Shown one piece after another: positions 112 through 555 of a stretch of DNA of 555 nucleotides. Each line of letters begins with the position of its first letter. Positions within the stretch are counted from its first letter, which is position 1. The stretch lies in the sequence record EF517108.1; one strand, given 5' to 3'. The position numbers and the translations under genes are program-made. The stretch is from a phage. The notes beneath the pieces were generated by a model. The model made no database searches, was not told the origin of the DNA, and saw only the letters and a list, made by a program, of their open reading frames with translations.

Positions 112-261
112 ATGTTCCGCTTATTGTTGAACCTACTGCGGCATAGAGTCACCTACCGATTTCTTGTGGTACTTTGTGTTGCCCTTGGGTACGCATCTCT
201 TATTGGAGACCTCAGTTCACTGGAGTCTGTCGTTTGCTCTATACTCACTTGTACCGATTAG
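112..261 (+). CDS. 19.5: Small hydrophobic phage protein of unknown function, 49 aa (T7 gene 19.5-like); translation MFRLLLNLLRHRVTYRFLVVLCVALGYASLIGDLSSLESVVCSILTCTD
   Basis: ATG at 112 preceded by a strong SD; open frame of 49 codons ending at TAG 259-261. Basic N-terminus (R3, R10, H11, R12, R16), then a hydrophobic stretch (about residues 17-31), then a Cys-containing tail (C22, C42, C47). Position (last gene before the right-end repeats and terminal repeat) and length match what I recall of T7 gene 19.5; the exact residue identity to T7 was not verified by alignment. Confidence 0.8.
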   Translation: MFRLLLNLLRHRVTYRFLVVLCVALGYASLIGDLSSLESVVCSILTCTD

Positions 262-500
262 GGTCTTCCTGACCGACTGATGGCTCACCGAGGGATTCAG
301 CGATATGATTGCATCACACCACTTCATCCCTATAGAGTCAAGTTCTAAGGAATACCCATAAAGAGCCTCTAATGGTCTATTCTAAGGTCTATACCTAAAG
401 ATAGGCCATCCTATCAGTGTCACCTAAAGAGGGTCTTAGAGAGGGCCTATGGAGTTCCTATAGGGTCCTTTAAAATATACCATAAAAATCTGAGTGACTA
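262..500. other. Non-coding right-end region between the last gene and the terminal repeat
   Basis: No ORF longer than about 22 codons on the + strand and none with a credible RBS on either strand; dense with short repeats and small palindromes. Consistent with the non-coding right end of T7-group genomes. Confidence 0.6.
343..429. repeat. Array of imperfect heptamer-type short repeats (CCTAAAG family), resembling the short-repeat region inside the right end of T7
   Basis: Copies read from the sequence: TTCTAAGG 343-350, CCCATAAAG 355-363, TTCTAAGG 380-387, CCTAAAG 394-400, CCTAAAG 423-429. Further copies lie inside the terminal repeat (CCTAAAG 517-523 and 541-547), and related copies occur upstream (CATAAAG 8-14 and 94-100). 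A 7-bp direct repeat GGTCTAT sits at 374-380 and 386-392. Confidence 0.6.
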
Positions 501-555
501 TCTCACAGTGTACGGACCTAAAGTTCCCCCATAGGGGGTACCTAAAGCCCAGCCA
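501..555. repeat. Start of the right-hand direct terminal repeat (terminal redundancy) of a T7-like genome; the repeat continues beyond the window
   Basis: TCTCACAGTGTACGGACCTAAAGTTCCCCCATAGGGGGTACCTAAAGCCCAGCCA matches my recollection of the first 55 bases of the T7 genome left end. The boundary cannot be proven from this window alone because the other copy is not present here. Confidence 0.6.
524..540. other. Short GC-clamped hairpin / inverted repeat (CCCCC-ATA-GGGGG) within the terminal repeat
   Basis: CCCCC at 526-530 and GGGGG at 534-538 are reverse complements separated by a 3-nt loop (ATA), with an additional T-A pair possible at 524/540. Flanked by CCTAAAG repeats on both sides. Function not assignable from sequence. 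Confidence 0.4.

Follow-up and report, generated by a model that had tools for sequence, protein, structure and literature searches.

The 555 nt of phage DNA deposited as record EF517108.1 (hereafter the window, meaning the whole stretch that was analyzed) raise the question of where a phage chromosome ends: do the letters from position 501 onward open a direct terminal repeat of the bacteriophage T7 type, and is the step between positions 500 and 501 the place at which such a molecule is cut? We are close to certain that the window comes from the right end of the genome of T7, or of a variant very close to it, and that the 160-bp direct terminal repeat starts at position 501. The feature at this position is already known, textbook and ordinary, and constitutes no new finding; it restates knowledge gained from the T7 genome sequence and from classic packaging work and leaves that picture unchanged. 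Its use lies in annotation and in assembly quality control: the boundary tells at which point to end or re-linearise a T7-like contig and draws attention to possible repeat collapse or false circularisation there.

Correspondence with the right end of T7

The window aligns without gaps and with 100% coverage to nt 39278-39832 of T7 (V01146), with 548 identical positions out of 555 (98.7%), and its best full-length matches in the phage collection are T7 records. Positions 1-500 correspond to T7 nt 39278-39777 without gaps and in native order, gene 19.5 and its downstream spacer standing directly before the repeat. Since position 1 of the window is T7 nt 39278, position 501 falls on T7 nt 39778. 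The features discussed below are collected in Table 1.

Table 1. Features of the 555-nt window (window coordinates; the arrow marks the repeat boundary)
Feature	Position	Strand	Observation
Gene 19.5 (49 aa), last T7 gene before the right end	112..261	+	ORF; annotated in V01146 at 39389-39538
CCTAAAG heptamer array, both sides of the boundary	394..547	+	Perfect copies at 394, 423, 517 and 541
Conserved block across the boundary, CCTTTAAAATATACCATAAAAATCTGAGTGACTA↓TCTCACAGTG	467..510	+	44/44 identical in eight aligned records
Repeat boundary	500..501	.	Repeat starts of T7, 13a, Sekstaphage-1, phiYe-F10 and T3 at the homologous position
First 55 bp of the T7-type direct terminal repeat	501..555	+	55/55 to T7 nt 1-55 and 39778-39832

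The terminal repeat and its left boundary

A first-pass annotation of this DNA, made from the letters of the window, had proposed that from position 501 the sequence matches the beginning of the T7 genome, that this position is the left boundary of the terminal repeat, that the T7 repeat measures about 160 bp and that the right end should lie some 105 bp past the window. All of these propositions are borne out, and for T7 they can be given to the base. The last 55 nt of the window, TCTCACAGTGTACGGACCTAAAGTTCCCCCATAGGGGGTACCTAAAGCCCAGCCA, have perfect matches in the phage collection (E = 4e-20), including nt 1-55 of T7, and in nearly all T7 records listed their best place is record position 1-55, i.e. 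the deposited left terminus, the second place being the right end. A suffix-prefix comparison of the ends of V01146 yielded an exact direct repeat of 160 nt (nt 1-160 and 39778-39937), the length also given in the literature (PMC7697293). Because the right copy starts at nt 39778 and the window at nt 39278, the coordinate 501 is correct to the base, and the distance from the last letter of the window to the T7 right end is exactly 105 bp (39937 - 39832 = 105). The end of the molecule from which the window itself was read would, by extrapolation from T7, lie 105 bp further on; given the seven private substitutions that separate it from T7, its own repeat could have a length other than 160 nt, as in phage 13a (170 nt).

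T7 DNA is linear and non-permuted and carries 160-bp repeats (PMC7697293, PMC3896407). Physical, non-permuted ends of this kind are recognized by read starts clustered at the termini and by an about two-fold coverage of the repeat (PMC3896407, PMC10438801). The window holds a single repeat copy and stops 55 nt inside it. This copy is either the right-hand one or, if the sequence stems from a concatemer or a permuted assembly, the copy located at a junction.

The boundary in related phages

Terminal repeats were computed from both ends of the complete records of T7, 13a, Sekstaphage-1, phiYe-F10, T3 and PP81 and measured 160, 170, 227, 235, 231 and 151 nt, respectively. The first five of these phages have in common the boundary ...AAAAATCTGA(G/A)TG(A/G)(C/G)TA↓TCTCA(C/T)AGT.... 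At the opposite edge, the repeat ends with ...TCCCT and is followed by ATCTGTT at the left end in T7, 13a, T3, Sekstaphage-1 and PP81; the repeat computed for phiYe-F10 extends a few bases beyond ATCTGTT, the motif standing just inside the repeat end. In T7 this heptanucleotide is found 106-112 nt beyond the end of the window, and only left-end or junction sequence displays it. It corresponds to the class II T7 RNA polymerase pause motif at the concatemer junction (bioRxiv 10.64898/2026.02.12.705533).

T7 itself (V01146 / NC_001604) shares with the window the identical 55 nt of repeat, the identical 119 nt upstream (382-500), the same boundary and the same gene 19.5, and differs from it by seven substitutions, all upstream of position 382 and none in the repeat or in the preceding 119 nt. 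Phage 13a (EU734174) resembles T7 in its boundary, ...CTGAGTGACTA↓TCTCACAGTGTACGG, and in its right edge, ...TCCCT↓ATCTGTT, but its repeat is 10 nt longer than that of T7 and it departs from the window at five places within 511-555, one alignment gap counted. T3 and the Teetrevirus phages (NC_003298; phiYe-F10; Sekstaphage-1) display the boundary AAAAATCTGAATGGGTA↓TCTCAyAGT, CCTAAAG-type heptamers on both sides and the same architecture, with the right edge ...TCCCT↓ATCTGTT found in T7, apart from the phiYe-F10 offset described above; their repeat is, however, about 70 nt longer than that of T7 and its interior only loosely alignable.

Pectobacterium phage PP81 (KY124276.3) keeps the conserved ...AAAAATCTGAGTGAGTA↓TCTCATAG block (locus 401-466). 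Its 151-nt repeat, both annotated and computed (locus 518-668), begins roughly 80 nt further right, at CGTTATC..., and ends with ...CTCCCT↓ATCTGTT. This leaves two explanations, a shift of the left cut in that genus or an error in the deposited left end.

A conserved block across the boundary

Eight Teseptimavirus records were aligned over this region, namely the T7 reference, 13a, YpP-R, HZ2R8, vB_Yep_15, JeanTinguely, NC-A and the permuted T7 assembly OZ035731. In the six relatives other than T7, all 44 positions of 467-510 are identical to the window, compared with 38-41 of 45 in 511-555 and 75-81 of 85 in 382-466, which makes this block the best-conserved stretch of the junction region among the Teseptimavirus records examined. 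In a five-genome alignment of the junction, invariant columns reach their highest share, 0.65-0.8, at -29..+30 around the boundary, versus 0.1-0.5 in most flanking windows of that alignment. Conservation extends to more distant phages: with BLAST, roughly positions 467-534 gave matches of about 80-88% identity in Klebsiella, Serratia, Pectobacterium and Leclercia phages, and the boundary stretch can still be made out in Teetrevirus, Pektosvirus, Klebsiella and Serratia phages. The boundary thus lies inside the best-conserved stretch, which fits a role as the cut site of the mature left end. Judged from its conservation, the block 467-510 is a candidate for the signal that is recognised or cleaved when the left end matures.

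The differences between the window and T7 have a distribution of their own. The seven substitutions (positions 179, 203, 254, 303, 344, 351 and 381) are confined to a span of 203 nt (179-381; P about 0.011), both 1-178 and 382-555 being identical to T7. Five of the seven are C:G>T:A changes and none is common to any of the eight relatives or T7 records compared. Three of them alter residues of gp19.5 with respect to T7 (A23V, T31I and S48T). The exact gp19.5 variant was absent from the collections searched, and an exact 40-mer spanning two of the private substitutions had no match in viral, metagenome and genome contigs. The window may stem from a T7 lineage not yet described, perhaps a line that was mutagenised or evolved, though we give this idea only a slim chance. 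If the substitution pattern reflects purifying selection, it would outline a constrained packaging and processing region beside the left-end cut site, and the 44-nt block 467-510 would represent a minimal left-end maturation signal, a proposal that can be tested.

Concatemer processing and packaging

Established T7 biology suggests how the boundary would be used. Replication is expected to produce head-to-tail concatemers, with one repeat copy common to each pair of adjacent genomes, and terminase (gp18/gp19, together with the procapsid) would cut fixed sequences during packaging. A cut at the left edge of the repeat, between positions 500 and 501, would generate the mature left end 5'-TCTCACAG..., and a cut at its right edge, ...GTCCCT (...GTGTCCCT), placed 105 bp past the window in T7, would generate the mature right end. 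The repeat would have to be duplicated so that both daughter genomes retain a copy. The conserved block 467-510 is most probably the sequence read for the left-end cut, a candidate role suggested by its conservation.

Published work describes concatemers with one repeat per junction, the second copy being made during maturation (PMC10438801, PMC4281155). Strand-displacement and primase-initiated models have been put forward for this duplication, with mention of a hairpin intermediate (PMC4281155). The small terminase subunit gp18 recognises PacB and gp19 cuts at PacC (PMC9860248). According to the account of Chung and Hinkle 1990 given in PMC13236587, plasmids carrying the junction and a T7 origin get packaged. 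The packaging and concatemer-processing signals, which the first-pass annotation expected in and around the repeat, are indeed placed at the concatemer junction by the literature (PMC9860248, PMC3276506, PMC13236587); on the exact T7 pacB and pacC coordinates, the secondary literature that was searched offers general statements only, the original reports being those of Chung and Hinkle 1990 and of Fujisawa and Morita 1997.

Assembly behaviour and alternative origins of the window

The annotation had also anticipated that contigs would stop at this place, become falsely circularised or look like a junction. Public records bear this out in both directions, some stopping before position 501 and others reading through. 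GU071091, LR745710 and LC730325 have a length of 39,778 bp, i.e. T7 minus one repeat, and the matches of LC730325 and LR745708 end exactly at window position 500, which indicates that one repeat copy was collapsed. OZ035731, a T7 assembly of 39,778 bp in which the junction lies at 2755-3309, reads through the repeat into the left-end ATCTGTT (...TCCCT ATCTGT...), as do HZ2R8 and JeanTinguely, and YpP-R reads through into the variant ATCTGTA. Contigs linearised at the wrong place, loss of the terminal repeat and a peak of coverage across it have been described (PMC10438801).

These records lend substance to another reading of the window, namely that its source is an assembly that was permuted or circularised, or else a read or contig running across a concatemer junction. 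The boundary would then be the same, but the repeat would run on into the left end ATCTGTTACAG... and no terminus would follow. Such a topology is present in OZ035731, HZ2R8, JeanTinguely and YpP-R, and permuted or junction assemblies are a common outcome (PMC10438801). In addition, the sequence of 501-555 was found in 174 records at 289 places in the phage collection, so that about a third of these records carry one copy only. Against this, 39 of the best 40 full-length matches have the repeat at both ends and match the window at the right end, and we regard a junction origin as possible, though rather unlikely. That the window is part of an engineered molecule (a phagemid, for instance, or a packaging-signal plasmid bearing the T7 concatemer junction) rather than of a phage genome is barely conceivable: plasmids with the T7 pac site and terminal repeat do exist (PMC13236587, PMC9860248), but 500 nt of the window are uninterrupted native right-end sequence, gene 19.5 included, and its seven substitutions are absent from any laboratory T7 record. 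A comparison of the window with 72,556 plasmid records and with E. coli genome records returned no match, and plasmid and host-chromosome origins are unlikely. Finally, the region is rich in CCTAAAG-like heptamers, which could in principle create a chance or low-complexity likeness between 501-555 and the T7 left end. We dismiss this explanation outright, in view of a match of 55 out of 55 (E = 4e-20), of the 500 nt upstream, which are collinear with the T7 right end, and of a boundary located exactly at the repeat start computed for five phages.

Heptamers and structural scans

Besides the perfect CCTAAAG copies, copies with one mismatch occur elsewhere in the window. At no more than one mismatch, 12 matches were counted for 2.2 expected, an about five-fold excess, and none of 200 shuffled sequences reached 12. 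In the T7 record, perfect copies are located at 39671, 39700, 39794, 39818 and 39837 and occur 11 times in nt 1-332. We take these heptamers to be the arrays of short repeats flanking the terminal repetition that were noted in the original T7 sequence paper.

Several candidate structures were considered and rejected. The T7 palindrome CCCCCATAGGGGG (525-537) and the stem at 446-464 do not persist in the T3 group, so that neither qualifies as a conserved structure. The imperfect dyad CTGAGTGACTATCTCACAG (490-508), whose centre falls 1-2 nt to the left of the cut position, was rejected on the same account; it forms six of nine pairs in T7 by manual count and fewer in T3, and is for this reason probably not significant. 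DNA folding of 440-555 proved no better than that of shuffled sequences (z = 0.45). A scan of the window against Rfam gave a single match at chance level (E = 0.38), far below the gathering score, and was not retained as a known RNA family. The promoter and terminator scan of the window detected none above chance and none in 501-555.

Annotation of the repeat in public records

The homologous stretch is annotated as a terminal feature in both PV223880 and 13a. The 13a record places a 'concatemeric junction' at 169-177. In this record (EU734174.1), the left repeat is annotated with 170 nt and the right repeat with 164 nt (38678-38841); since the two ends share an exact repeat of 170 nt, the right-end annotation starts 6 nt late. 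In the engineered T7 records PV223880 to PV223883, the 160-bp repeat (locus 1101-1260 in PV223880.1) is labelled 'cohesive-end site', a wrong name for a genome that is blunt and terminally redundant.
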